Shown here piece after piece: positions 2 to 18,516 of a stretch of 25,096 nt of DNA; the stretch's first letter is position 1; each line of letters starts with the position of its first letter. The notes below the pieces were generated by a model. That model was not told where the DNA came from. It worked only from the letters and a program-made list of their open reading frames with translations, and did not search any database. The stretch lies in the NCBI GenBank assembly GCA_031549365.1, contig JAVBPX010000008.1, positions 1 to 25,096 on the forward strand, in the 5' to 3' direction. This DNA comes from Alphaproteobacteria bacterium (GTDB lineage: Bacteria; Pseudomonadota; Alphaproteobacteria; Rs-D84). A program made the position numbers and the translations under genes.

Positions 2-277
2 TGCAACATTGTTTCATGTAACACAAACTATACTCTGATTGGCGGATCATGCATATTAACGAACCAAACCCGGCCATGTACAATTACAAACGGGACTGGG
101 GAACAAACATCAACTAATGGCGGCGTAACATGGGGAACATGTAACATTGTTTCATGTAACACAAACTATACTCTGGTTGGCGGATCATGCGCATTAACGA
201 ACCAAACCCGGCCATGTACAATTACAAACGGAACCGGCGAACAAACATCAACGGACGGCGGCCAAACTTGGACAAAT
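2..277 (+). repeat. 138-bp (46-aa) in-frame tandem repeat, 2 copies visible
   Basis: 2..139 and 140..277 encode CNIVSCNTNYTL(I/V)GGSC(I/A)LTNQTRPCTITNGTGEQTST(N/D)GG(V/Q)TW; near-identical DNA over the first ~110 bp. Confidence 0.9.
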
Positions 278-1948
278 TGCGAAATTACATCTTGCGATAC
301 CGGATATTATGCAGATTCTCCGACAGATGCAATGTGCAGACAATTAAAATGCGATCGTGGTAAATATGTATACGAATGGGAGCTAGGTTACGACGTTGAA
401 AATAACCTGGGATTAACATGTAAAGAATGTAAAAGCAACACATACCAACCTAATTTTAATACAACCGTAACATCATGCACAGAATGCCCAGTTGGATATT
501 GGTCTGTTTACGGACAATATGAATGTCAACAATGCTATATCGGAAGAAACAGTGACGGATCAGGAATGGCAAATGATGTTATTGAATGGGAAACGCCTCA
601 TGGTTGCGTTGCCAAAACATGCAAAGAAGGCGTTATCAAAATTGGAAATTTATGCAAAAAACCAAATCAAACAAGCGGATGTATTGTACCAAGCAAACAA
701 GGGACTGGTTTAATGTCATCAACAGACGGTGGCGTAACATGGGGCGATTGTATACCAAATTCATGTAACGCAAATTATCATGCCGAAAATAATGATTGCA
801 AACCAAATATAGAATCTTGTGTGGCTGAAAACGCAACGGCTGCATCACGAACATGGAACGGCACTTGGAATAACGGAACTTGGAATGCTTGTATCCCATC
901 AGCATGTACATTTGAATATCACATGGAAACCAACGCATGTGTATCTGATTTTCGCGGATGCGACACAGCATATGGTTCTGGATATATTAAATGGACATCC
1001 GAAAACGGGTGGAACAATGAATGTGTTTCTGAATCATGTGGCGCCGGACGCCACGCAGAAGACGGCAAATGTGTATTAAACACTGTGGCATGCACTGCGA
1101 CTAACGGCATTGGTCAAAAGACCTGGAATACTGGGACATCTGCTTGGTCCGAATGTGCATTAACAAAATGCAACACCGGATATCATTTGGATAATAATAC
1201 TTGTGCTTCAAATAGCCGCACATGCGTAACTGGCGATGGATACCAAACATGGAATGAAACAACATCAACTTGGAACGATTGTGCTCCGTCAACCTGCGAA
1301 CCAGGATATGAATTAATTGGCGGCACCTGCCGGACATGCGGCAAACAAAACGTTGCAACATATTCGTCCGCTTGCATAATTGCAACCTGCATATCGGGCT
1401 ATCATTTATCTGGCGGACAATGTATACCCAGCGAAAAACCTTGTTCTGTTGCTTATGGTTCTGGCGTCCAACATTGGACAGATATAAAATGGGGCGACTG
1501 CGAAATCACCGGATGTTCAACCGGATATCACTTGGAAAACGGAATCTGTACATCAAACACCAAAAGCTGCACTGTCGGTTCCGGGGGCACAGAAATCAAT
1601 GGCACCGCATCACAAACCTGGATTGGCGAATGGAATGAAAGCCCAATAACTGGCTGGGGCGAATGCACCGCAACATCATGCAACCCTGGATATTATTTGC
1701 CAAATGGATCTGATATCTGTGAACCATGTGAAAATCAGTATGATATAAATGGCGATTTGGCCGCATCAACATATTCATCCGGCTGTACAATATCCACCTG
1801 TATGTACCAGGGCGAATTATACAAACTGGAAAATAATAAATGTGTTCCAATTTGTATTGAAAACTTTGATGAAACCGGCGAAACAAAAATCAATACCGTT
1901 GCTCATAAGTGTGAAACAACATGTACTCCTGGATATAAAAAGTGGTAA
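2..1948 (+). CDS. Large cysteine-rich repeat protein, probably surface/secreted (5'-truncated by window edge)
   Basis: Frame 2 is open from base 2 (CNIVSCNTNYTLIGGSC...) into the track ORF 332..1948, so ATG 332 is internal. Many ~45-50 aa modules of form C...G.G.Q.W...W..C....C..GYHL....C; ends CTPGYKKW-TAA. Confidence 0.85.
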   Translation, partial: CNIVSCNTNYTLIGGSCILTNQTRPCTITNGTGEQTSTNGGVTWGTCNIVSCNTNYTLVGGSCALTNQTRPCTITNGTGEQTSTDGGQTWTNCEITSCDTGYYADSPTDAMCRQLKCDRGKYVYEWELGYDVENNLGLTCKECKSNTYQPNFNTTVTSCTECPVGYWSVYGQYECQQCYIGRNSDGSGMANDVIEWETPHGCVAKTCKEGVIKIGNLCKKPNQTSGCIVPSKQGTGLMSSTDGGVTWGDCIPNSCNANYHAENNDCKPNIESCVAENATAASRTWNGTWNNGTWNACIPSACTFEYHMETNACVSDFRGCDTAYGSGYIKWTSENGWNNECVSESCGAGRHAEDGKCVLNTVACTATNGIGQKTWNTGTSAWSECALTKCNTGYHLDNNTCASNSRTCVTGDGYQTWNETTSTWNDCAPSTCEPGYELIGGTCRTCGKQNVATYSSACIIATCISGYHLSGGQCIPSEKPCSVAYGSGVQHWTDIKWGDCEITGCSTGYHLENGICTSNTKSCTVGSGGTEINGTASQTWIGEWNESPITGWGECTATSCNPGYYLPNGSDICEPCENQYDINGDLAASTYSSGCTISTCMYQGELYKLENNKCVPICIENFDETGETKINTVAHKCETTCTPGYKKW

Positions 1949-1961
1949 AATAAAATATCGC

Positions 1962-1989
1962 TTGCAAAACAAACCGTTGTTTGCATAAT
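1962..1989 (+). promoter_or_regulatory. Putative sigma70 promoter for SRP RNA
   Basis: TTGCAA (1962-1967) - 16 bp - CATAAT (1984-1989), just upstream of the structured RNA. Confidence 0.55.
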
Positions 1990-1993
1990 ACAT

Positions 1994-2069
1994 AGCGGGC
2001 GGACGGGGGTCAGTGCCAGCGGGTCAGAGGGAAACCAGCAGCCCAGCACCAGACACCGGGTCGCCCACT
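1994..2069 (+). ncRNA. ffs: Signal recognition particle RNA (4.5S), minimal form
   Basis: GC-rich island folding as one long hairpin (GGGCG/CGCCC, GTC/GAC, GTGC/GCAC, GGG/CCC) with apical GCCAGCGGGTCAG-AGG-GAAA-CC-AGCAGCCC, matching the SRP helix 8 pattern GGTCAG..GNRA..AGCAGCC; promoter upstream, T-run downstream. Confidence 0.8.
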
Positions 2070-2089
2070 TTTTATACAAAAATCTACAA

Positions 2090-2117
2090 TTGACAAACAA
2101 AAAATACTCGATATAAT
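2090..2117 (+). promoter_or_regulatory. Consensus sigma70 promoter
   Basis: TTGACA (2090-2095) - 16 bp - TATAAT (2112-2117), upstream of ATG 2151. Confidence 0.75.
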
Positions 2118-2150
2118 AAACCCATAAAACCAAACCTTGGGGATAGTATA

Positions 2151-2514
2151 ATGGGCACATATTCAAAATATATTCTGAAACAAGTCCAAGAAAAACTTAA
2201 CACCGGACTTAACGTTACCGTGGCATTGCGGGAATTGGGCATTTCTCAGTCAACATATTATAACTTCCTGCGTGATAACCCAGATTTCAAAATTATTAAA
2301 CCAAAAAAAAGACACAAAATTATCTGGGAAAAAATCATCAACCGATGCAACAAACCAATCTTTTGCAATTAATTACAAAATTAAAATAATTTCCAAAATA
2401 TTATCTGACATGGAAAAATATAACATTGATGAACAGACTGCCTGTGAACGAAACTGTATATCCCCTGCTTTCTTTCGCGAACACCGCAATATTGTCGCAC
2501 AAAATTCTTTATAA
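2151..2514 (+). pseudogene. Small HTH DNA-binding protein split by a frameshift (ORFs 2151..2372 and 2272..2514)
   Basis: ORF1 has HTH-like VTVALRELGISQSTYYNF; the overlapping +1 frame has a second HTH-like EQTACERNCISPAFFREHR. Removing one A from the A8 run (2303-2310) fuses them into a 120-aa protein. Confidence 0.55.
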
Positions 2515-2518
2515 CTCC

Positions 2519-2547
2519 TTGACATTTGAATAAAATTACATCACAAT
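2519..2547 (+). promoter_or_regulatory. Putative rpsA promoter
   Basis: TTGACA (2519-2524) - 17 bp - CACAAT (2542-2547). Confidence 0.6.
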
Positions 2548-2651
2548 GAGTCAGCAAATTGGGACCGTTTGGGTGCGCAAACAAAAATCCCAACAAATTA
2601 ATCGCACAAGACCTCTGCATAACAGACGGCAAATATCAAAAGAAATTCTTA

Positions 2652-4406
2652 ATGAAAGATTTATCCAAAGATATTTTTAATCCTATTGCGAACGAAAATT
2701 TCGCAGATATGTTCAATCAAACATACGGCAAACAAGAAACATTACAAGGTTACGCAACCAAAGGCACAGTCAAAGATATTATTTCAGACTTCGTATTGGT
2801 TGATGTTGGTTTGAAATCCGAAGGCCGCGTTGATTTACGCGAATTCGGTGCAAATCCACCACGCGTTGGCGACATTATCGACGTATTCGTTGAACGTTAC
2901 GAATCCCGCGATGGCACAGCTGTATTATCATACGCCAAAGCACGCGCTGAAAAAGCATGGAAAGAATTGGAAAAAATTGTTGCCGCGGGCGAAGATCCAG
3001 AAGGAACAATTATCGAAGCTGTACGCGGCGGATTCACTGTTGACATCAACGGAGTATTTGCATTTATGCCTTCATCCCAAGCAGACACTCGTCCAATTCG
3101 CGATTCACATTCCTTGGTTGGTTTGACTGACAAATTCCGCGTATTAAAAATGGATTCTTTGCGCACAAACGCTATCGTTTCCCGTCGCGCAATTATGGAA
3201 GCAGGACATCTGGAAGCCAAAAAAGAAATCATGAAAAACATCAAAGTTGGATCAACAGTCGAAGGTATCGTAAAAAATATCACAGATTATGGTGTATTTG
3301 TTGATTTGGGCGGCATAGATGGATTGTTGCATGTAACAGATTTATCCTGGAAACGTGTAAACCACCCTCGCGAGATGTTGTCTGTTGGCGATAAAATCAA
3401 CGTAAAAGTTATCCAATTCGACCCAGAAACACACCGTATTTCTTTGGGTATGAAACAATTGGAATCCGACCCATGGGCAAACGCATCACGCGCATACAAT
3501 GTTGGCGATGTATTGGCTGGCAAAATCAGTTCTTTAACTGATTACGGCGCATTCGTTGATTTGGGTAACGGAGTAGAAGGTTTAGTCCACATGTCAGAAA
3601 TCAGCTGGACAAACAAAAACATCAACCCATCCAAAGTATTCAACGTTGGCGACGAAGTCCGCGTTACAATTTTGGGCATTGATATGGACAAACGTCGTAT
3701 TTCATTGGGAATCAAGCAAAACTTGGAAAATCCATGGAAAAAATACGCAGAATCACATAAAATTGGCGATGTAATCTCTGGCGCAATTAAAAACATGACA
3801 GAATTCGGATTGTTCGTATCATTGAACGACGAATTGGACGGAATGGTTCACATTTCTGACTTGTCATGGGATGTTGCCGGCGAAGAAGCCATCAAACAAT
3901 ACCAAAAGGGAATGGAAGTATCTGCAAAAATCTTGGATATTAATGCAGAAAAAGAACGCATTACTTTGGGTATCAAACAATTAACTGAAAACAAAAACGC
4001 AAAACCTGCGGCACTCCGCAAAGGCGCAACAGTTACTGGAACAATTTCCGAAGTAACTGGCGAAGAATTGGTTATTGATTTGGGCAACGGGGCAACCGGC
4101 ACAATCAAAAAAACTGAAATTTCTCGCGAAAAATCGGAACAGAATACATCGACATTTAACGTTGGCGATTCTGTAACTGCCGCTGTTGCGTTGGTTGAAA
4201 AAGATGGTTCGATCAAATTGTCGATCCGCGCACTGGAAGCTGCCGCTGAAAAAGCAGCCGTCAAAGAATACAGCAACAACGCTGATTCTGGCGCAGTATT
4301 GGGCGATATTTTGGGCGCAGCAATCGAAAGCAGCAAATCTTCAAAAAAAGAAACTGCCTCAACGCCAGCTACTAAAAAAACCACAGCCAAAAAGAAAGCT
4401 GAATAA
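2652..4406 (+). CDS. rpsA: 30S ribosomal protein S1
   Basis: Repeated S1 OB-folds (VDVGLKSEG, KNITDYGVFVDLGGIDGLLHVTDLSW, LTDYGAFVDL..GVEGLVHMSEISW, RISLGIKQ). Start placed at ATG 2652 because the upstream TTG lies in the structured leader. Confidence 0.96.
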   Translation: MKDLSKDIFNPIANENFADMFNQTYGKQETLQGYATKGTVKDIISDFVLVDVGLKSEGRVDLREFGANPPRVGDIIDVFVERYESRDGTAVLSYAKARAEKAWKELEKIVAAGEDPEGTIIEAVRGGFTVDINGVFAFMPSSQADTRPIRDSHSLVGLTDKFRVLKMDSLRTNAIVSRRAIMEAGHLEAKKEIMKNIKVGSTVEGIVKNITDYGVFVDLGGIDGLLHVTDLSWKRVNHPREMLSVGDKINVKVIQFDPETHRISLGMKQLESDPWANASRAYNVGDVLAGKISSLTDYGAFVDLGNGVEGLVHMSEISWTNKNINPSKVFNVGDEVRVTILGIDMDKRRISLGIKQNLENPWKKYAESHKIGDVISGAIKNMTEFGLFVSLNDELDGMVHISDLSWDVAGEEAIKQYQKGMEVSAKILDINAEKERITLGIKQLTENKNAKPAALRKGATVTGTISEVTGEELVIDLGNGATGTIKKTEISREKSEQNTSTFNVGDSVTAAVALVEKDGSIKLSIRALEAAAEKAAVKEYSNNADSGAVLGDILGAAIESSKSSKKETASTPATKKTTAKKKAE

Positions 4407-4426
4407 TTATTATTCTGTAAACTTTT

Positions 4427-4454
4427 AAAAACCGGGGCCCTCCCCGGTTTTTTT
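4427..4454 (+). terminator. Rho-independent terminator after rpsA
   Basis: AAAAACCGGGG-CCCT-CCCCGGTTTTTTT. Confidence 0.85.
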
Positions 4455-4496
4455 ACATTGATTTGCCATCCCTTCAACTTTTTGCATATAGGATAT

Positions 4497-4557
4497 CAAC
4501 AATATTAAAAAATATGTCATAGCTCGGGGCTCACGGCTCCGCGGCAATCATTGCAAC
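4497..4557. repeat. Degenerate REP/RPE-like intergenic element
   Basis: TGTCAT...CTCCGCGGCAATCATTGCAAC (4515-4557) resembles 24860-24901; CAACAATATTAAAAA (4497-4511) is identical to 25032-25046. Confidence 0.5.
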
Positions 4558-4634
4558 TAATCTTTCGATTTTTCTTGCAATCCCATGAACTTTTATATAA
4601 AATACCAACATTCCCCAAACATAGAAGGATTATA

Positions 4635-4949
4635 ATGAGCCAGTATCAAAAAAAAGGCCACCAAATGGGATCAATGATTCAGCGCTGTCATAAATGGCGC
4701 CAAAATCGTAAACGTTTCCTGGACCAAGCACGCATAACATCTGATGAAATTGAACGCGAACGCATGTTCCAAATGGCTGAACATTATGGCCGAATGGTAT
4801 CATCGGAACAGGGTAAAATCGACGGAATCCGAGATGTCCGTGAAAAACCAATTGAACCAGTTGTATGCGATAATGACGCGGACGACACTGATGATTTAAT
4901 GGCCGAGGTTACCTCTGGCGGAGTTCTGCCCGACTTCCTAACCAACTAA
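4635..4949 (+). CDS. DUF4167-like alphaproteobacterial protein
   Basis: RFLDQAR...DEIERERMFQMAEHYGRM resembles the family motif (KY..LARDA...D....E...QHAEHY.R); RBS GAAGGA before ATG 4635; candidate promoter TTGCAA-17-TAAAAT at 4575-4603. Confidence 0.65.
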   Translation: MSQYQKKGHQMGSMIQRCHKWRQNRKRFLDQARITSDEIERERMFQMAEHYGRMVSSEQGKIDGIRDVREKPIEPVVCDNDADDTDDLMAEVTSGGVLPDFLTN

Positions 4950-4969
4950 ATAAACAATTTTCGAAACAA

Positions 4970-4997
4970 AAAAAATGCACCGAACGGTGCATTTTTT
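4970..4997. terminator. Bidirectional terminator between convergent genes
   Basis: AAAAAATGCACC-GAAC-GGTGCATTTTTT. Confidence 0.85.
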
Positions 4998-5604
4998 ATT
5001 TTCGTATCCCTGTTTTGGGGTCAACCCAAATTTGTTCCCCTGCCAACCGCATCATAGGCAAATCTTTTTTAGAATCAGAATACGCACGCACAACGCGATA
5101 TTCGATTCCTCGTTGCTTGGCCCACGCATTTAAACGATTAACCTTTTCCGCGCCCAAACACAAATCGCCAATTGCGCGCCATGGTTCATCCGGATCCATA
5201 TTCGAACACATTACCAAATCAAATCCAAAATCGGCTGTCAACGGGTGAATTAAATAATTTCGCGACGCTGATATACAAATCGCCGTCAATCCGGATTCTT
5301 GGTCATTTTTTACACGTTCGTGTGCCCAACCAAATATATTCCTTTTGTGTTCACGAATAAAATCTGGGACAAAACGCGTAATCATATCCGGCGTTAAAAA
5401 ACACAACATCCGTTGATTCATATAATTTTTTGAAATCAAATTCAAACCACCCAACAAACCATAAAATCCAATCATCGGCAAAAATGCCCATGGGCGAATT
5501 GAATGTTTAAAACAATATTTCCAAAATTCAACCACACTGTCGTGCGCACACAACGTCCCGTCAAAATCATACAATGCCAATTTTACAATTTTGTTTTTTG
5601 CCAT
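4996..5604 (-). CDS. HAD-superfamily IB phosphatase (SerB/PgpC-like)
   Basis: Motif I YDFDGTL, motif II ISAS, motif III K (GAEKV), motif IV YSDSKKDLPM; start overlaps the RND stop by 1 nt. Confidence 0.88.
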   Translation of the reverse strand: MAKNKIVKLALYDFDGTLCAHDSVVEFWKYCFKHSIRPWAFLPMIGFYGLLGGLNLISKNYMNQRMLCFLTPDMITRFVPDFIREHKRNIFGWAHERVKNDQESGLTAICISASRNYLIHPLTADFGFDLVMCSNMDPDEPWRAIGDLCLGAEKVNRLNAWAKQRGIEYRVVRAYSDSKKDLPMMRLAGEQIWVDPKTGIRK

Positions 5605-14986: not shown

Positions 14987-15015
14987 TTGGCAAACATTCA
15001 AAAATATGGTATAAT
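14987..15015 (+). promoter_or_regulatory. Putative promoter of LOG gene
   Basis: TTGGCA - 17 bp - TATAAT with TG extended -10. Confidence 0.6.
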
Positions 15016-15045
15016 GCGCGCATATGAAATAACAAAGGATTTAAA

Positions 15046-15609
15046 ATGATGAACAATGGTAAAAAATTTGCAATGGCTGTATATTGCGGCGCCCGCGATG
15101 GGATTGATCCAATTTACCGTGAAATGGCTGAAAAATTGGGTAAATTAATGGCCGCGGAAAAAATCGGATTGGTATATGGCGGCGGCGATACGGGATTAAT
15201 GGGAACAGTTGCACGTTCGGTCCTCGAAAACGGCGGATCTGGCATCGGGATTACCACAGAATTAATATCAAAACGCGAACCTGTCTTGGCCGGAATGCCA
15301 ACCGAAGTCAAAGAAGATTTATTAAAACGCAAGGCCCGAATGATTGAATTATCCGACGCATTTTGCATTTTACCGGGCGGAATGGGCACAATGAACGAAG
15401 TAACCGACATCATGACCATGCACCAAATCGGCGAAACAAATTTACCAATCTACTTTTTAAACACAAACGGATACTGGAACAGATTTGGCGCAGTATTAAA
15501 CCACATGGTATCCCAGGGCTTCATCGGATCACAAACAGAATACAACATGACAATCTGTGACACCCCCGAAGACATAATCAAAGCATATAAATCACGTTTT
15601 TTTGAATAA
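15046..15609 (+). CDS. LOG-family (TIGR00730-like) nucleotide phosphoribohydrolase
   Basis: VYCGA, LVYGGG..GLMG, RKARMIELSDAF, PGGMGTMNE motif. Confidence 0.9.
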   Translation: MMNNGKKFAMAVYCGARDGIDPIYREMAEKLGKLMAAEKIGLVYGGGDTGLMGTVARSVLENGGSGIGITTELISKREPVLAGMPTEVKEDLLKRKARMIELSDAFCILPGGMGTMNEVTDIMTMHQIGETNLPIYFLNTNGYWNRFGAVLNHMVSQGFIGSQTEYNMTICDTPEDIIKAYKSRFFE

Positions 15610-15626
15610 AATTATATGATTTGCAC

Positions 15627-15654
15627 TTGACCCGAATCGAAAAGTCATTATAAT
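15627..15654 (+). promoter_or_regulatory. tRNA-Cys promoter
   Basis: TTGACC (15627-15632) - 16 bp - TATAAT (15649-15654), 10 nt upstream of the tRNA. Confidence 0.7.
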
Positions 15655-15664
15655 TATGCGTACT

Positions 15665-15738
15665 GGCCGGGTGGCAGAGTGGTTATGCAGAGGACTGCAA
15701 ATCCTTGTACGTCGGTTCGATTCCGGTCTCGGCCTCCA
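15665..15738 (+). tRNA. tRNA-Cys (GCA)
   Basis: 74 nt: acceptor GGCCGGG/CTCGGCC, anticodon arm GAGGA-CTGCAAA-TCCTT, T-loop TTCGATT, U73 discriminator, encoded CCA. Confidence 0.97.
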
Positions 15739-16169
15739 GTAATAAAAATATCCCCATTTATTGGGGATTTTTTGTTACTCCGATACTGGGATCGAACCGC
15801 GGTTCGCTTCGGAGTTGGGTTTTGCAAGTGTAACGCCGCGAAACTCTTACGAGAATGGAAAGGGGCCCACGAGTTTACGAGTGGGAATTACATTCCGGTC
15901 TCGGCCTCCAGAAAATAATAAACCATTCATACGAATGGTTTTTTGTTTTTTGGGGCAAAGGCCCTGGAATTGAACCGACCGCAACAAAGTTGCTCGGTTC
16001 GCTTCGGAGTAGGCAAGAACGAGCATTGCGAAGTTCGAGCCGTACGAGAATGGAAAGGGGCCCACAAATATATTTGTGGGAATTACATTCCGGTCTCGGC
16101 CTCCAGTAATAAAAATATCCCCATTTATTGAGGATTTTTTGTTACTCCGATACTGGGATCGAACCGCGG
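15720..16169 (+). repeat. tRNA-3'-end-linked tandem array of structured units (172 bp, 195 bp, plus 83-bp partial)
   Basis: ATTCCGGTCTCGGCCTCCAG at 15720, 15892 and 16087; shared blocks CGGTTCGCTTCGGAGT, TACGAGAATGGAAAGGGGCCCAC, GTGGGAATTAC; 16087-16169 matches 15720-15802 at 82/83. Confidence 0.92.
15739..15779 (+). terminator. Terminator-like hairpin after tRNA-Cys (analogues at 15911-15950 and 16106-16145)
   Basis: GTAATAAAAATATCCCCA-TTTAT-TGGGGATTTTTTGTTAC. Confidence 0.7.
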
Positions 16170-16324
16170 GCAAGAAAAATAACAAAGCTCAAAACATTTT
16201 AAATTACGATGATACGGCGGGTTCTTTTTATTTTCGAGAAAATCAAAAATATATAAAACACATCAAAACGAGTCATATAGACATTTTGTTTTTCAAAAAC
16301 CAAAGAGCGCGTACCATTTAAATG

Positions 16325-16452
16325 TAAAATCAGTCAAAACGTATCAGATGGTTGGGTTATTTTATTTTCAAGGGGTTGAGCGTATATAAACATACGTGAT
16401 ACCTCCGAGAAAATAAAAAACGCATCCAGATGATGCGTTTTCATTGATTTTA
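16325..16452. mobile_element. ERIC/RPE-like palindromic miniature element (128 bp, TA-flanked)
   Basis: Termini TAAAATCAGT / ATTGATTTTA; internal arms AAAACGTATCA/TGATGCGTTTT and TTTTATTTTC/GAAAATAAAA; core GAGCGTAT-ATAAAC-ATACGTGA; right TA coincides with the rpoD stop codon. Confidence 0.65.
16411..16441 (-). terminator. rpoD terminator nested in the palindromic element
   Basis: Minus strand AAAACGCATC-ATCTG-GATGCGTTTTTTATTT just after the stop. Confidence 0.65.
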
Positions 16453-18516
16453 ATCTTCGACAAAACTGCGAAGTTTCCGCGCCCTCGAAGGATGCTTCAA
16501 TTTATTCAACGCCTTTTGTTCAATCTGACGAATACGTTCACGTGTAACGCCAATGTATTCTCCAACTTCTTCCAATGTTGATGTTTTGTTCGTGCTCATC
16601 CCGAAACGTTGACGCAATACTGTTTCTTCCTTTGGATCCAATGTCGATAAAATCGAAGTAACAATGTTACGCAAATTCTTTTGGGCGGCGGATGTAAACG
16701 GATCAATCGCATTGTCGTCCTGGATAATATCCATACGTGTACTGTCGTCTTCGTTACCAACCGGGGATTCCAAACTGATCGGCTTTAAATTAATCTTCAT
16801 CGCTTTGTGAATTTTATCCACAGGCATATAAACAATTTTCGCCAATTCTTCGGCCGTCGGAGTACGTCCATGCTTGTGTAAAAATTGACGCGATGCCTTT
16901 TTAATTTTATTAATATTTTCAATCATATGAACTGGGATTCGAATTGTTCTGGCCTGATCCGCGATTGAACGGGAAATACCCTGTTGAATCCAACATGTTG
17001 CATACGTTGAAAATTTATAACCCAAACGATAATCAAATTTATCCACAGCTTTCATCAAACCGATATTCCCATCCTGGACCAAATCTGGAAATTCCAATCC
17101 CAATCCACGGTTTGAATATTTTTTCGCAGATTTGATAACCAAACGCAAATTGGCTTCGATCATTTCACGTTTTGCACGTGCAGCTTCGGTCTGACCTTTT
17201 TTTACCAATTCAACAACCTTGCGATATTCACCGGTCGGCAAGCCAGTTTCGGTCGCAATAGCACTGATTTCTGATTGAATTTTTTGAATATCCTTGGCGT
17301 GATTTTTCACAAATCTTTCCCACGCAGGCGACTTGATTTTTGAAATCTTTTTAATCCAATTTGGATTCAATTCGTTACCCTGATATTGTTCCAAAAAATC
17401 TTCGCGTTTAACTTTGGATGCCAGAGCCAAACGTAATAATTTACCCTCTAATCCCATCAATAATTGATTGCGGGCGGTCAAAGCTTCCAATATTTCGTTA
17501 ACTCGATCATCGTGCAAACGAATTTTTGTAACCAATTCGAATAATTCAGCACGAACTTTAACATATTTCTTTTCCAATGCTTCATCCGATTTGTTTGATT
17601 CAATCAAATCGAACAAACGTTGCTTTTGCAATTTTTCAAATTGTGTAAATATTTTTTTAATTTGCGCAAACAAATCCAATACAACAGGCAATAAATTTTC
17701 TTCCATTACTGAAATCGGCGTACCGGACGCACCACGATTCATATCATCTGAATCTTCGCCCAATTCTTCGGTTTCATCCACCACAGATTCTTCATCCAAC
17801 GTATCTTCCAAATCTTCGTCATCCAAACCATCAATATCATCAACACCCTTGGCACGCATAACCATATCCAATTCTTTGACCGACTTCATATCAGCATCAG
17901 ACGAATACATAACATCCAAATTAATAATGTAACGTAATTTTATTTCGTCATTCAATAATTGTTGATACCAATTTAACATAGATCGAATTGTCATAGGCGA
18001 TTCACACAAACCATAAACCAATAAACGGCTGGCTGCTTCAATTCGTTGGGCAATTGCAACTTCGCCAGGCCCAGATAATAATTGAATCGAACCAATTGCC
18101 TTTAAATACGATTGAACAGAATCTTGAACCATTGTAACTGGCCCAATATTCGAATTATTTAATTGTTTTGCATAAAAATCATATTCTTCGTCATCAAATT
18201 CCAACAAATCATTATTAGCATCAAAAGGATTACGATTTTTCATTCTGGAATTTGTTTCGTCTTCTTCCTCTTCAACACGTTCCAAAACCGGAACTTCAGA
18301 CTCCAAAATTTCCAACCCTAAATCTTGTTTAAAAAATGATAATACTTCGTCCAATTGATCATCAACCAATTCGTCATTTTCGGCCGCGGCATTAAATTCC
18401 ATTAACGAGAGATAGCCCGATTCACTTGCGTGTTGGGCTAAATCTTTTAAATTTTCCGGCAAAGTATCAATTAAAAACTGTGTCGCAGTATCAATATTTA
18501 TATTTGGTTTCGTCAT
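16450..18516 (-). CDS. rpoD: Primary RNA polymerase sigma factor sigma70
   Basis: 688 aa with region 1.1, acidic non-conserved region, EANLRLV, GNIGLMKAVDKF, ADQARTIRIPVHMIE, TLEEVG...VTRERIRQIE.KAL.KLKHPSR. Confidence 0.96.
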   Translation of the reverse strand: MTKPNINIDTATQFLIDTLPENLKDLAQHASESGYLSLMEFNAAAENDELVDDQLDEVLSFFKQDLGLEILESEVPVLERVEEEEDETNSRMKNRNPFDANNDLLEFDDEEYDFYAKQLNNSNIGPVTMVQDSVQSYLKAIGSIQLLSGPGEVAIAQRIEAASRLLVYGLCESPMTIRSMLNWYQQLLNDEIKLRYIINLDVMYSSDADMKSVKELDMVMRAKGVDDIDGLDDEDLEDTLDEESVVDETEELGEDSDDMNRGASGTPISVMEENLLPVVLDLFAQIKKIFTQFEKLQKQRLFDLIESNKSDEALEKKYVKVRAELFELVTKIRLHDDRVNEILEALTARNQLLMGLEGKLLRLALASKVKREDFLEQYQGNELNPNWIKKISKIKSPAWERFVKNHAKDIQKIQSEISAIATETGLPTGEYRKVVELVKKGQTEAARAKREMIEANLRLVIKSAKKYSNRGLGLEFPDLVQDGNIGLMKAVDKFDYRLGYKFSTYATCWIQQGISRSIADQARTIRIPVHMIENINKIKKASRQFLHKHGRTPTAEELAKIVYMPVDKIHKAMKINLKPISLESPVGNEDDSTRMDIIQDDNAIDPFTSAAQKNLRNIVTSILSTLDPKEETVLRQRFGMSTNKTSTLEEVGEYIGVTRERIRQIEQKALNKLKHPSRARKLRSFVED

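Follow-up and report, generated by a model that had tools for sequence, protein, structure and literature searches.

Transfer RNA genes are classic landing sites of genomic islands, and as a rule one protein integrase reads one tRNA gene. The attC sites of integrons, like the attachment site of CTX phage, which is single-stranded and folded, are imperfect inverted repeats folded from one strand, variable in sequence and fixed in layout. Cassettes of the staphylococcal cassette chromosome (SCC) type use large serine recombinases and the 3' end of rlmH, stack, include recombinase-less members and carry both direct and inverted repeats. Islands with a tyrosine integrase split the target gene; PMC4383910 describes for them a regenerated tRNA end and an exact direct repeat of the 3' end at the borders, and PMC6323972 describes cis-mobilizable elements (CIMEs) without recombination genes. 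In IS608, according to parts of PMC3201880, TTAC serves as both cleavage and target site and is read by a guide, AAAG, located 5' of the hairpin foot. Here we analyzed a 25,096-nucleotide stretch of an alphaproteobacterial genome (contig JAVBPX010000008.1, positions 1 to 25,096; hereafter the window) in which an array of short non-coding units follows a tRNA-Cys gene. With slightly better than even confidence, we read these units as miniature insertion cassettes, devoid of genes, whose target is the T-loop of tRNA genes, and the antisense tract within them as a decaying inverted copy of the target. Our confidence is moderate for the insertion cassette and low for the fold-back detail set out below.

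ARAGORN identified a single tRNA in the window, tRNA-Cys(GCA). The 20 nt of its 3' end, from T-loop position A58 to CCA plus one G, are present in three identical copies, and the coordinates given in Table 1 correct those of an earlier note on this DNA. Two non-coding units lie between the three copies. Each unit runs, in order, through a terminator hairpin with T run (15750-15768 and 15920-15941 in the terminator search), the antisense tract, a short sense copy of the T-arm start, a variable hairpin (H2) and a conserved module, which consists of TACGAGAATG, GAAAGGGG, hairpin H3 and GGGAATTAC and directly abuts the next tRNA-end copy. The array thus comprises two different cassettes and a third, truncated copy, and it ends at 16169, the center of the palindrome CGAACCG/CGGTTCG. 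DNA contigs from one run of a single study (15000-16900) confirm the array piecewise, with a depth of 20-27 over the units versus about 31 in the flanks, a difference too weak to call population heterogeneity. RNA contigs from two runs of the same study cover the flanking genes (at 15034-15602 and 16444-16900) and none of 15603-16443; being contigs only, they have no bearing on transcription. On the plus strand of 15400-16600 we found no promoter-like site besides that of the tRNA, and none for the units. Rfam 15, with its tRNA-like and T-box families, returned nothing besides the tRNA at gathering score in 15400-16500, and no match at E up to 1 in the second unit locus of the same genome.

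Table 1. Coordinates of the tRNA-Cys gene and the cassette array in the window
Feature	Position	Strand	Basis
Sigma-70-type promoter of tRNA-Cys (TTGACC, 16 nt, TATAAT)	15627-15654	+	11/12 matches
tRNA-Cys(GCA), intact, CCA encoded	15665-15738	+	ARAGORN; Rfam tRNA, 57.8 bits
Core copy 0: the tRNA's own 3' end, A58 to CCA plus G; start of the 83-nt repeat 15720-15802	15720-15739	+	Repeat finder
Terminator hairpin 1 and T run, part of cassette 1	15750-15774	+	Terminator search; empty sites in sister species indicate that the terminator was inserted too
Antisense tract 1, complementary to 15713-15732 (17/20)	15780-15799	+	Repeat finder; 1/2000 shuffles
Palindrome CGAACCG/CGGTTCG, then degenerate sense T-arm copy CGGTTCGCTTCGGAG (15800-15814); local hairpin with tract 1	15793-15814	+	Repeats, fold
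Variable hairpin H2, cassette 1	15817-15846	+	Fold
Conserved 3' module, cassette 1: TACGAGAATG, GAAAGGGG, H3 (15866-15885), terminal GGGAATTAC (15883-15891)	15848-15891	+	Repeats, family alignment
Core copy 1: exact 20-nt tRNA-Cys 3' end	15892-15911	+	Sequence comparison
Terminator hairpin 2 and T run, cassette 2; sequence unrelated to terminator 1	15920-15947	+	Terminator search
Antisense tract 2, gapped complement of the entire tRNA 3' end including CCA; extends the 15964-15979 of the earlier note	15951-15979	+	Repeat finder; 0/2000 shuffles
Tip mini-hairpin GCAAC-AAA-GTTGC, then sense copy TCGGTTCGCTTCGGAG (15995-16009), pairing with the 3' part of tract 2	15981-16009	+	Repeats, fold
Variable hairpin H2, cassette 2	16012-16041	+	Fold
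Conserved 3' module, cassette 2: H3 (16061-16080), GGGAATTAC (16078-16086)	16043-16086	+	Repeats
Core copy 2 (16087-16106), terminator 1', antisense tract 1' (16147-16166)	16087-16169	+	99% repeat of 15720-15802

The earlier note had claimed that each cassette carries an antisense copy of the tRNA T-arm and acceptor, and our analysis confirms that the copies are real. The 20-nt arms of cassette 1 are 85% complementary, and the same tract recurs in the truncated copy. In cassette 2, the repeat finder paired 15711-15724 with 15966-15979 (14 nt, 93%, 13/14), and a gapped alignment extended this tract to the complement of the full tRNA 3' end. In 2000 dinucleotide-preserving shuffles of each 5' region (mean score about 7, standard deviation 1.3), the observed antisense score of 14 was reached by 1, 0 and 0 shuffles for the three regions, and the tracts of the window are among the best preserved in the family (rank 1 of 110). 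The note had also proposed that the tract pairs backwards and extends the terminator into a long hairpin. ViennaRNA predicts this fold for 15665-15805, in which the tract pairs with T-arm and acceptor of the tRNA so as to enclose the terminator (-67.8 kcal/mol, z -6.7). The alternative proposed in the note, a forward, cloverleaf-like closure, held in part for unit 2, where an outer GGCC stem is predicted to close onto the 3' end (z -4.5), and failed for unit 1, where the tract pairs locally with the CGGTTCGCTTCGGAG that follows it, not above shuffles (z -1.6). A pairing internal to the body, between GAGAATGGAA of the window and TTCCGGTCTC of the core, was rejected as a general feature: among the matches listed in the family scan described next, the sequence that immediately precedes GAAAGGG fails to follow the core, with 5 of 112 units in the best 5%.

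We scanned one genome per species for the pattern GAAAGGGNCCCNC...GNGGGAATTAC, which yielded at least 118 stretches, and parsed 131 units among the matches listed, the set to which all unit and motif counts below refer. The units are non-coding and about 150-200 nt long. Nearly all matches listed come from gut or rumen Alphaproteobacteria metagenome-assembled genomes (MAGs), many of them Candidatus Enterousia, and a few from bins otherwise labelled. Placement behind tRNA genes is the common feature: 106 of the 131 units lie no more than 200 nt downstream of a tRNA on the same strand, 7 are second or third tandem copies, 3 stand behind 1.2-5.2 kb of other (cargo) DNA, 11 fall at a locus edge and 4 have no upstream tRNA (the displaced tRNA end on contig C14, L059, the second L156 copy and L111). 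L111 was rejected as a unit, being a chance match inside coding DNA; a match to the pattern with two mismatches at C15:43461 was likewise discarded as coding DNA. The host tRNAs represent at least 24 anticodon types and at least 14 amino acids. Following GGGAATTAC, the sequence copies the 3' end of the unit's own tRNA from A58 onwards, exactly over at least 17 nt in 81 of 116 units, over 10-16 nt in 13 and over less than 10 nt in 22; the short matches indicate that some of the displaced copies have decayed.

The genome that carries the window (G000; 911 kb, 97.6% complete) has the module at two more sites, behind tRNA-Arg(CCT) on contig C1 and on C14, behind a displaced tRNA-Arg(TCT) end. A survey of the order, based on a sample of 301 genomes and accompanied by control searches, found the pattern in 86 genomes, all of one family (85 of 271 besides G000), including 78 of the 234 genomes of the largest genus. 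The other five families of the order yielded the pattern in 0 of 29 genomes, with 0 control matches, and viral contigs gave 0 matches to the module pattern. One genome of a different family (G038) contains a diverged look-alike of the module at L029 (GAAAGGGGCCCAC ... GGGAATATCC), oriented opposite to tRNA-Ser(GCT) and flanked by direct repeats of the 3' end of that tRNA and its adjoining flank. Judging from this look-alike, related cassettes may exist beyond the family delimited by the strict pattern.

These units are inserted DNA. The surroundings of tRNA-Pro(GGG) are syntenic in five species, and presence varies at this one locus, with three sites empty and one occupied. In G024, G013 and G044 the tRNA leads directly into the neighboring gene with no terminator hairpin, and in G042 it is followed by a related cassette (terminator, 5' region, GGTTCG, body and second core), after which the native flank resumes. 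Because the empty sister sites lack the terminator, the terminator, the 5' region with its antisense tract, and the body arrive together. At the tRNA-Cys array, direct repeats of the tRNA end mark the borders and the tRNA is intact, as in tRNA-targeting elements and CIMEs. At the tRNA-Cys locus of 29 relatives, the unit of the window was present in 0. One of these loci, in G018, holds an unrelated insert of about 130 nt that follows the same logic, an antisense segment of 10 nt being combined with 16 nt that repeat the tRNA end. Among the three functions that the earlier note had offered for the tract, inverted-repeat ends for mobilisation comes nearest: the units are indeed insertions that include the tract, but the 3' copy with which the tract pairs behaves like an attachment-type direct repeat of the tRNA end, not like a transposon terminal repeat.

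Units also carry marks of their own genome. GGTTCGCTT is common to the units of G000 only, the H3 loop is near-identical in Cys unit 1 and the Arg(TCT) unit of G000, and all nine units of G014 contain GGGACCC. We take these genome-specific signatures as signs of spread within genomes; gene conversion between bodies could be an alternative source. A further sign of this kind comes from one locus (L092), where two tandem units have identical 3' bodies and unrelated terminators and 5' regions. ARAGORN counts 45 tRNA genes in G000, and extra 3'-end copies lie behind those for Lys-TTT, Arg-CCT, Arg-ACG, Cys, Glu-CTC and Asn; those of tRNA-Arg(TCT) are on another contig. The bodies behind these tRNAs differ. 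The inserts at Lys-TTT and Glu-CTC open with a brief stretch antisense to the T-arm of their own tRNA and, like the G018 insert, combine a cassette-like layout with unrelated bodies.

The sequence of events that we favor would be as follows. A cassette would enter between T-loop positions G57 and A58. Its left end would bring a replacement 3' end (A58 to CCA) together with its own terminator, leaving the tRNA gene intact, and the old 3' end would be displaced downstream, flush against the right-end module (GAAAGGGG, H3, GGGAATTAC). Serial insertions of this kind would give rise to stacked cassettes. Within the insert, the antisense tract would be the target (the T-arm and the 3' strand of the acceptor) copied in inverted orientation, followed by a short sense left half-site, GGTTCG. 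If the cassette passes through a single-stranded state, as DNA during recombination or possibly as RNA, the tract could pair with the split sense copies (GGTTCG; A58 to CCA). The resulting fold-back duplex would resemble the T-arm target, with the conserved module branching at the 57/58 crossover, a principle comparable to that of integron attC sites and of the CTX-phage attachment site. After insertion the tract would be dispensable and could decay, and catalysis would presumably fall to an enzyme acting in trans.

To follow the tract across the family, we aligned the 5' regions of 102 distinct first units to the reverse complement of the last 30 nt of their own tRNA and compared the scores with those for non-cognate tRNAs. 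The tract beat every non-cognate tRNA in 13 units and ranked in the top 5% in 30, compared with about 5 expected. The tract is therefore target-derived, and well preserved in about a third of the copies only. The earlier note had named a lack of covariation between the tract and the adjacent tRNA as part of what would refute its claim; such covariation is far above chance and is not found in most copies. A helix selected in plus-strand RNA is expected to contain G.U pairs far in excess of A.C. Antisense:sense pairing was scored in the 92 alignable units of the 102, where we counted 1658 Watson-Crick pairs and mismatches of 82 G.U, 85 A.C and 386 other. The near equality of G.U and A.C indicates that no RNA-type pairing is conserved and that pairing between the tract and the tRNA end is not maintained. 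The long inverted repeat formed by core, terminator and tract is about 75% paired, shows no wobble bias and in many units is weak. Agreement between the cognate tRNA and the sense copy that precedes TTCG is slight (4.12 vs 3.28 of 8 positions), and a local hairpin with at least 6 nt of exact complement at the left half-site is present in 29 of 98 units. The neutral-looking decay of the tract fits a role at the moment of insertion only, or a mere by-product of insertion.

The same measurements bear on the possibility that the unit is transcribed with the tRNA and acts as RNA, the tract either unfolding the precursor tRNA as a switch or closing a tRNA-like, CCA-ending RNA as a mimic. Such a role is consistent with the long backward hairpin favored in silico, with the good predicted fold of unit 2, with G.U-type pairs in H3 on the plus strand only, and with units that always lie on the strand of the tRNA and each end in a terminator of their own. 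It is disfavored by the 82 G.U versus 85 A.C mismatches, by the abundance of transversion-type mismatches (386), by a tract that in about 30 of 102 units fits its own tRNA no better than a non-cognate one, by the segment upstream of GAAAGGG that does not track the core, and by the unit 1 fold that does not exceed shuffles. No promoter was found, a good terminator precedes each unit, and there is no Rfam match. Patchy presence with empty sites is also a better fit to selfish DNA than to a maturation device. We consider a function of this type very unlikely, and the "tRNA mimic" and "maturation switch" suggested earlier are not supported.

Hairpin H3 behaves differently from the tract. Across 106 distinct motifs, its fourth pair is G.T in 51, A-T in 47, G-C in 6 and A.C in 0; the inner stem varies in sequence, and the stem reaches at least 8 pairs in 56 of the 106. 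H3 is thus a real hairpin of the plus strand only, formed in RNA or in single-stranded DNA. RNAalifold, applied to 75 modules, detected no double changes in the five basal pairs; because four of these pairs are fixed by the search pattern, support for H3 comes from the inner stems and the fourth pair.

A strand-specific hairpin at the right end raises the question of whether the body alone is the element, lying between the end of GGTTCG and the end of TTAC. It could then be a miniature of the HUH (IS200/IS605) type, or a leftover omega-RNA-like scaffold with guide, inserted 3' of TTCG in the T-loop of a pseudo-tRNA, and the flanks would be older host scaffolds. The body does stand 3' of a fixed tetranucleotide without target duplication. 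A strand-specific hairpin forms its right end, and the 6 nt behind that hairpin finish in TTAC. An AAAG 5' of the hairpin echoes the pair of guide and TTAC cleavage site described for IS608 in parts of PMC3201880. The L092 tandem units, with identical bodies and unrelated flanks, point the same way, as does a layout of scaffold, roughly 19 nt of target and terminator that resembles a guide RNA. Several features disagree. Short units lack a left-end hairpin, GGG intervenes between AAAG and the hairpin foot, and among the matches listed the body never occurred inside a complete tRNA gene or at sites other than tRNA ends. Searches for the enzymes were also negative or nearly so: Y1 HUH transposases gave 0 matches in G000 and a match in 5 of 101 family genomes (4 over the cut-off), and the TnpB-type domain (PF07282) exceeded the cut-off in 0 of 101 genomes, G000 included, which has one sub-threshold zinc-ribbon match. 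Taken together, this makes an element confined to the body distinctly unlikely.

We then considered which recombinase could serve the cassettes. The units contain no open frame with a family match. G000 encodes two Xer-sized tyrosine recombinases and two P4-like integrases, none beside a unit; matches to the Phage_integrase family comprised the two Xer-sized frames and one P4-like protein, none near the array, in a search not specific to integron integrases. Five genomes had 3-6 tyrosine recombinases each, with 1-4 non-Xer integrases in every genome checked, and P4-like integrases are present in four of the five unit-rich genomes, G014 being the one without. A resolvase-domain match was obtained in all five unit-rich genomes, with a frame of 503-548 amino acids in four (G000, G014, G005 and G243), and none of these large serine recombinase frames is beside a unit. 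Between that of G000 (C8:49249-50775, 509 amino acids) and the 3' end of tRNA-Ser(GGA) there are about 1.8 kb with two small frames, and no duplicated tRNA end of 10 nt or more was found at this locus. Reverse transcriptases gave 0 matches in G000, and none of 5 genomes, G000 and G014 among them, yielded the DEDD transposase (PF01548) of IS110 bridge-RNA elements. Plasmids and phages are often missing from MAGs, and a partner acting in trans is thus compatible with these negative results.

Integrase islands do occur at tRNA ends in these genomes. In G000, tRNA-Arg(TCT) lies at a contig end (C7:101429-101505) and continues on C14:1-11396 (L215) as an 11-kb defence island; C7 and C14 are probably adjacent. 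The island encodes HamA, a Fic-domain protein, the R, S and M subunits of a type I restriction-modification system and a P4-like integrase that is truncated at the contig end, and its displaced tRNA-Arg(TCT) fragment is followed by a unit of the cassette family. The second P4-like integrase (C15:48241-49329, equivalent to L204:8242-9330; 362 amino acids) has a weak catalytic-domain match (25 bits, profile 2-124 of 172) and sits among housekeeping genes (acyl-ACP thioesterase, LpxI) with no tRNA-end repeat nearby; it may be domesticated or decaying. At L070 (oriented, 145-5400) and L074 (oriented, 2960-4480), 5.2 kb and 1.5 kb of cargo separate tRNA-Gln(CTG) from the unit. In the 1.5-kb cargo, a 387-amino-acid frame contains CxxxCxxC, a motif characteristic of radical-SAM enzymes. 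Each cargo segment ends in its own degenerate ...CCCCAACCA copy, which indicates a different element family at the same tRNA end. Transfer RNA ends are busy integration sites in G000 and its relatives.

Against this background the units might be dead leftovers: immobile, CIME-like deletion remnants of integrase islands, in which the tract would be an arm-type or core-type inverted site of an old attachment site. According to PMC4383910, the hallmark of tyrosine-integrase islands is that the tRNA end is regenerated and a fragment displaced, and both the islands at tRNA ends just described and the non-Xer integrases of every genome checked agree with such an origin. The same 45-nt module at no fewer than 24 tRNA types, with genome-specific signatures, would however require many parallel identical deletions. 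Furthermore, no full-length module-bearing element turned up among the matches listed or in viral contigs (0), and the sole integrase island examined crosses over in the anticodon loop. An origin as remnants is therefore unlikely in our judgment.

The symmetry of the locus also admits an origin without any mobile element. The sense-antisense-sense order could stem from template switching during replication, or from fold-back repair at the inverted repeat of the T-arm, with local duplication thereafter. The succession of tRNA end, inverted copy and sense copy resembles inverted triplications, the palindrome is centered at 15799/15800, the array stops exactly at a palindrome center (16169), and the tract decays as if neutral. 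This scenario leaves unexplained both a conserved foreign body common to all the tRNA types and to 86 of 301 genomes and a terminator that arrives with the insert, and we regard it as extremely improbable.

The reading that we prefer, insertion of gene-less cassettes at the T-loop, faces difficulties of its own. No recombinase can be assigned to the cassettes and no unit adjoins an integrase; G014, which has the most units (9), gave no Arm-DNA-bind_3 integrase match. The 11-kb island is the only integrase island of G000 that shares a tRNA with a unit, and its identity block starts in the anticodon loop rather than in the T-loop. A single family on at least 24 tRNA types is hard to reconcile with site recognition by protein only. 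No circular form or excision event was seen, the DNA contigs of the one sample containing no joints at the array, and double-stranded DNA closed into a circle of 170-195 bp would be very stiff. In several arrays the last repeat is partial and stops at differing points (16169 here; also L115, L147 and L219), which a simple core crossover does not predict. Finally, the tract scores below the non-cognate median in 30 of 102 units, so that a fold-back site cannot be essential to the resident copy, and the 20 sequences of the largest subgroup, Pro-GGG, share a conserved 5' region that is only weakly antisense.

Beyond the array, the spacer from 16170 to 16460 (mainly 16325-16455), which leads to the end of a sigma-factor gene on the minus strand, is made up of dispersed repeat modules. 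The main module is an imperfect palindrome of about 130 nt around a bidirectional terminator (16417-16441), with relatives in at least 15 other places in G000 (C1, C3, C4, C8 and C10-C14), including the insert behind tRNA-Arg(ACG) on C4. In the same genome, ARAGORN reported no transfer-messenger RNA gene and one aberrant tRNA-like call with a 2-nt anticodon (C14:155784-155856).

These cassettes put a gene-less insert of 150-200 nt behind tRNA genes of at least 24 anticodon types, in genomes of less than 1 Mb with few mobile elements, and every copy contains sequence that matches its own tRNA; where preservation is better, the match occurs in both orientations. Should these sequences direct insertion, the cassettes would constitute a very small retargetable insertion system and would explain many odd "tRNA tail duplications" in uncultured bacteria. 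A bolder extension is that they form a new class of mobile DNA in which T-loop insertion is programmed by nucleic acid: the cassette, with its sense and antisense target copies, would fold into a target mimic and rewrite those copies at each new tRNA, and the enzyme would be a host or novel one rather than a dedicated integrase; we give this proposal a small though appreciable chance. For annotation, the extra tRNA ends and terminators can be misread as pseudo-tRNAs, island borders or small-RNA genes.

We compared the units with four groups of known elements. They resemble SCC in being stacked cassettes at the 3' end of a conserved gene, delimited by inverted repeats and by direct repeats of the gene end, with large resolvase frames in 4 of 5 unit-rich genomes; they differ in that serine recombinase genes do not stand beside the units, in the tRNA T-loop as target and by a hundredfold in size. 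With attC and CTX sites they have in common small stacked cassettes and strand-specific pairing (H3, 51 G.T versus 0 A.C), whereas the target is the tRNA T-loop rather than attI or dif, the pairing of tract and core is not conserved, and neither attI nor an integron integrase was identified by searches not specific to such integrases. The attC core is also unlike the junction motif of the units, TTAC/A (the slash marks the junction). Palindrome-associated transposable elements (PATEs) of the IS200/IS605 group, and repetitive extragenic palindromic (REP) sequences with their REP-associated tyrosine transposases (RAYTs), are likewise tiny hairpin elements that sit 3' of a tetranucleotide without duplication and have a top-strand hairpin near the end. 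Of the ends typical of PATEs, the units have the right-end hairpin with flanking AAAG and TTAC, and the left-end hairpin is missing in short units. Unlike PATEs and RAYT-associated elements, the units invariably sit within a duplicated tRNA end next to an intact tRNA, the body comes together with its terminator and 5' region, and Y1 enzymes are nearly absent from these genomes.

The last group, tRNA-targeting islands and CIMEs, shares with the units an identity block of about 19-20 nt from T-loop to CCA, tandem accretion and, for CIMEs, the lack of recombination genes. In contrast to these elements, the units are gene-less, measure only 150-200 nt, use one module for the entire range of tRNA types, and contain an inverted target copy and a strand-specific hairpin; the searches described above turned up no partner element with a cognate integrase. 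A literature search, conducted mostly at the level of titles and abstracts, returned no description of such cassettes. It is the use of a single module across so many tRNA types, the strand-specific hairpin in that module and the inverted target copy inside the insert that are unusual, and what is new here is integration at tRNA ends without any gene and with target copies in both orientations.

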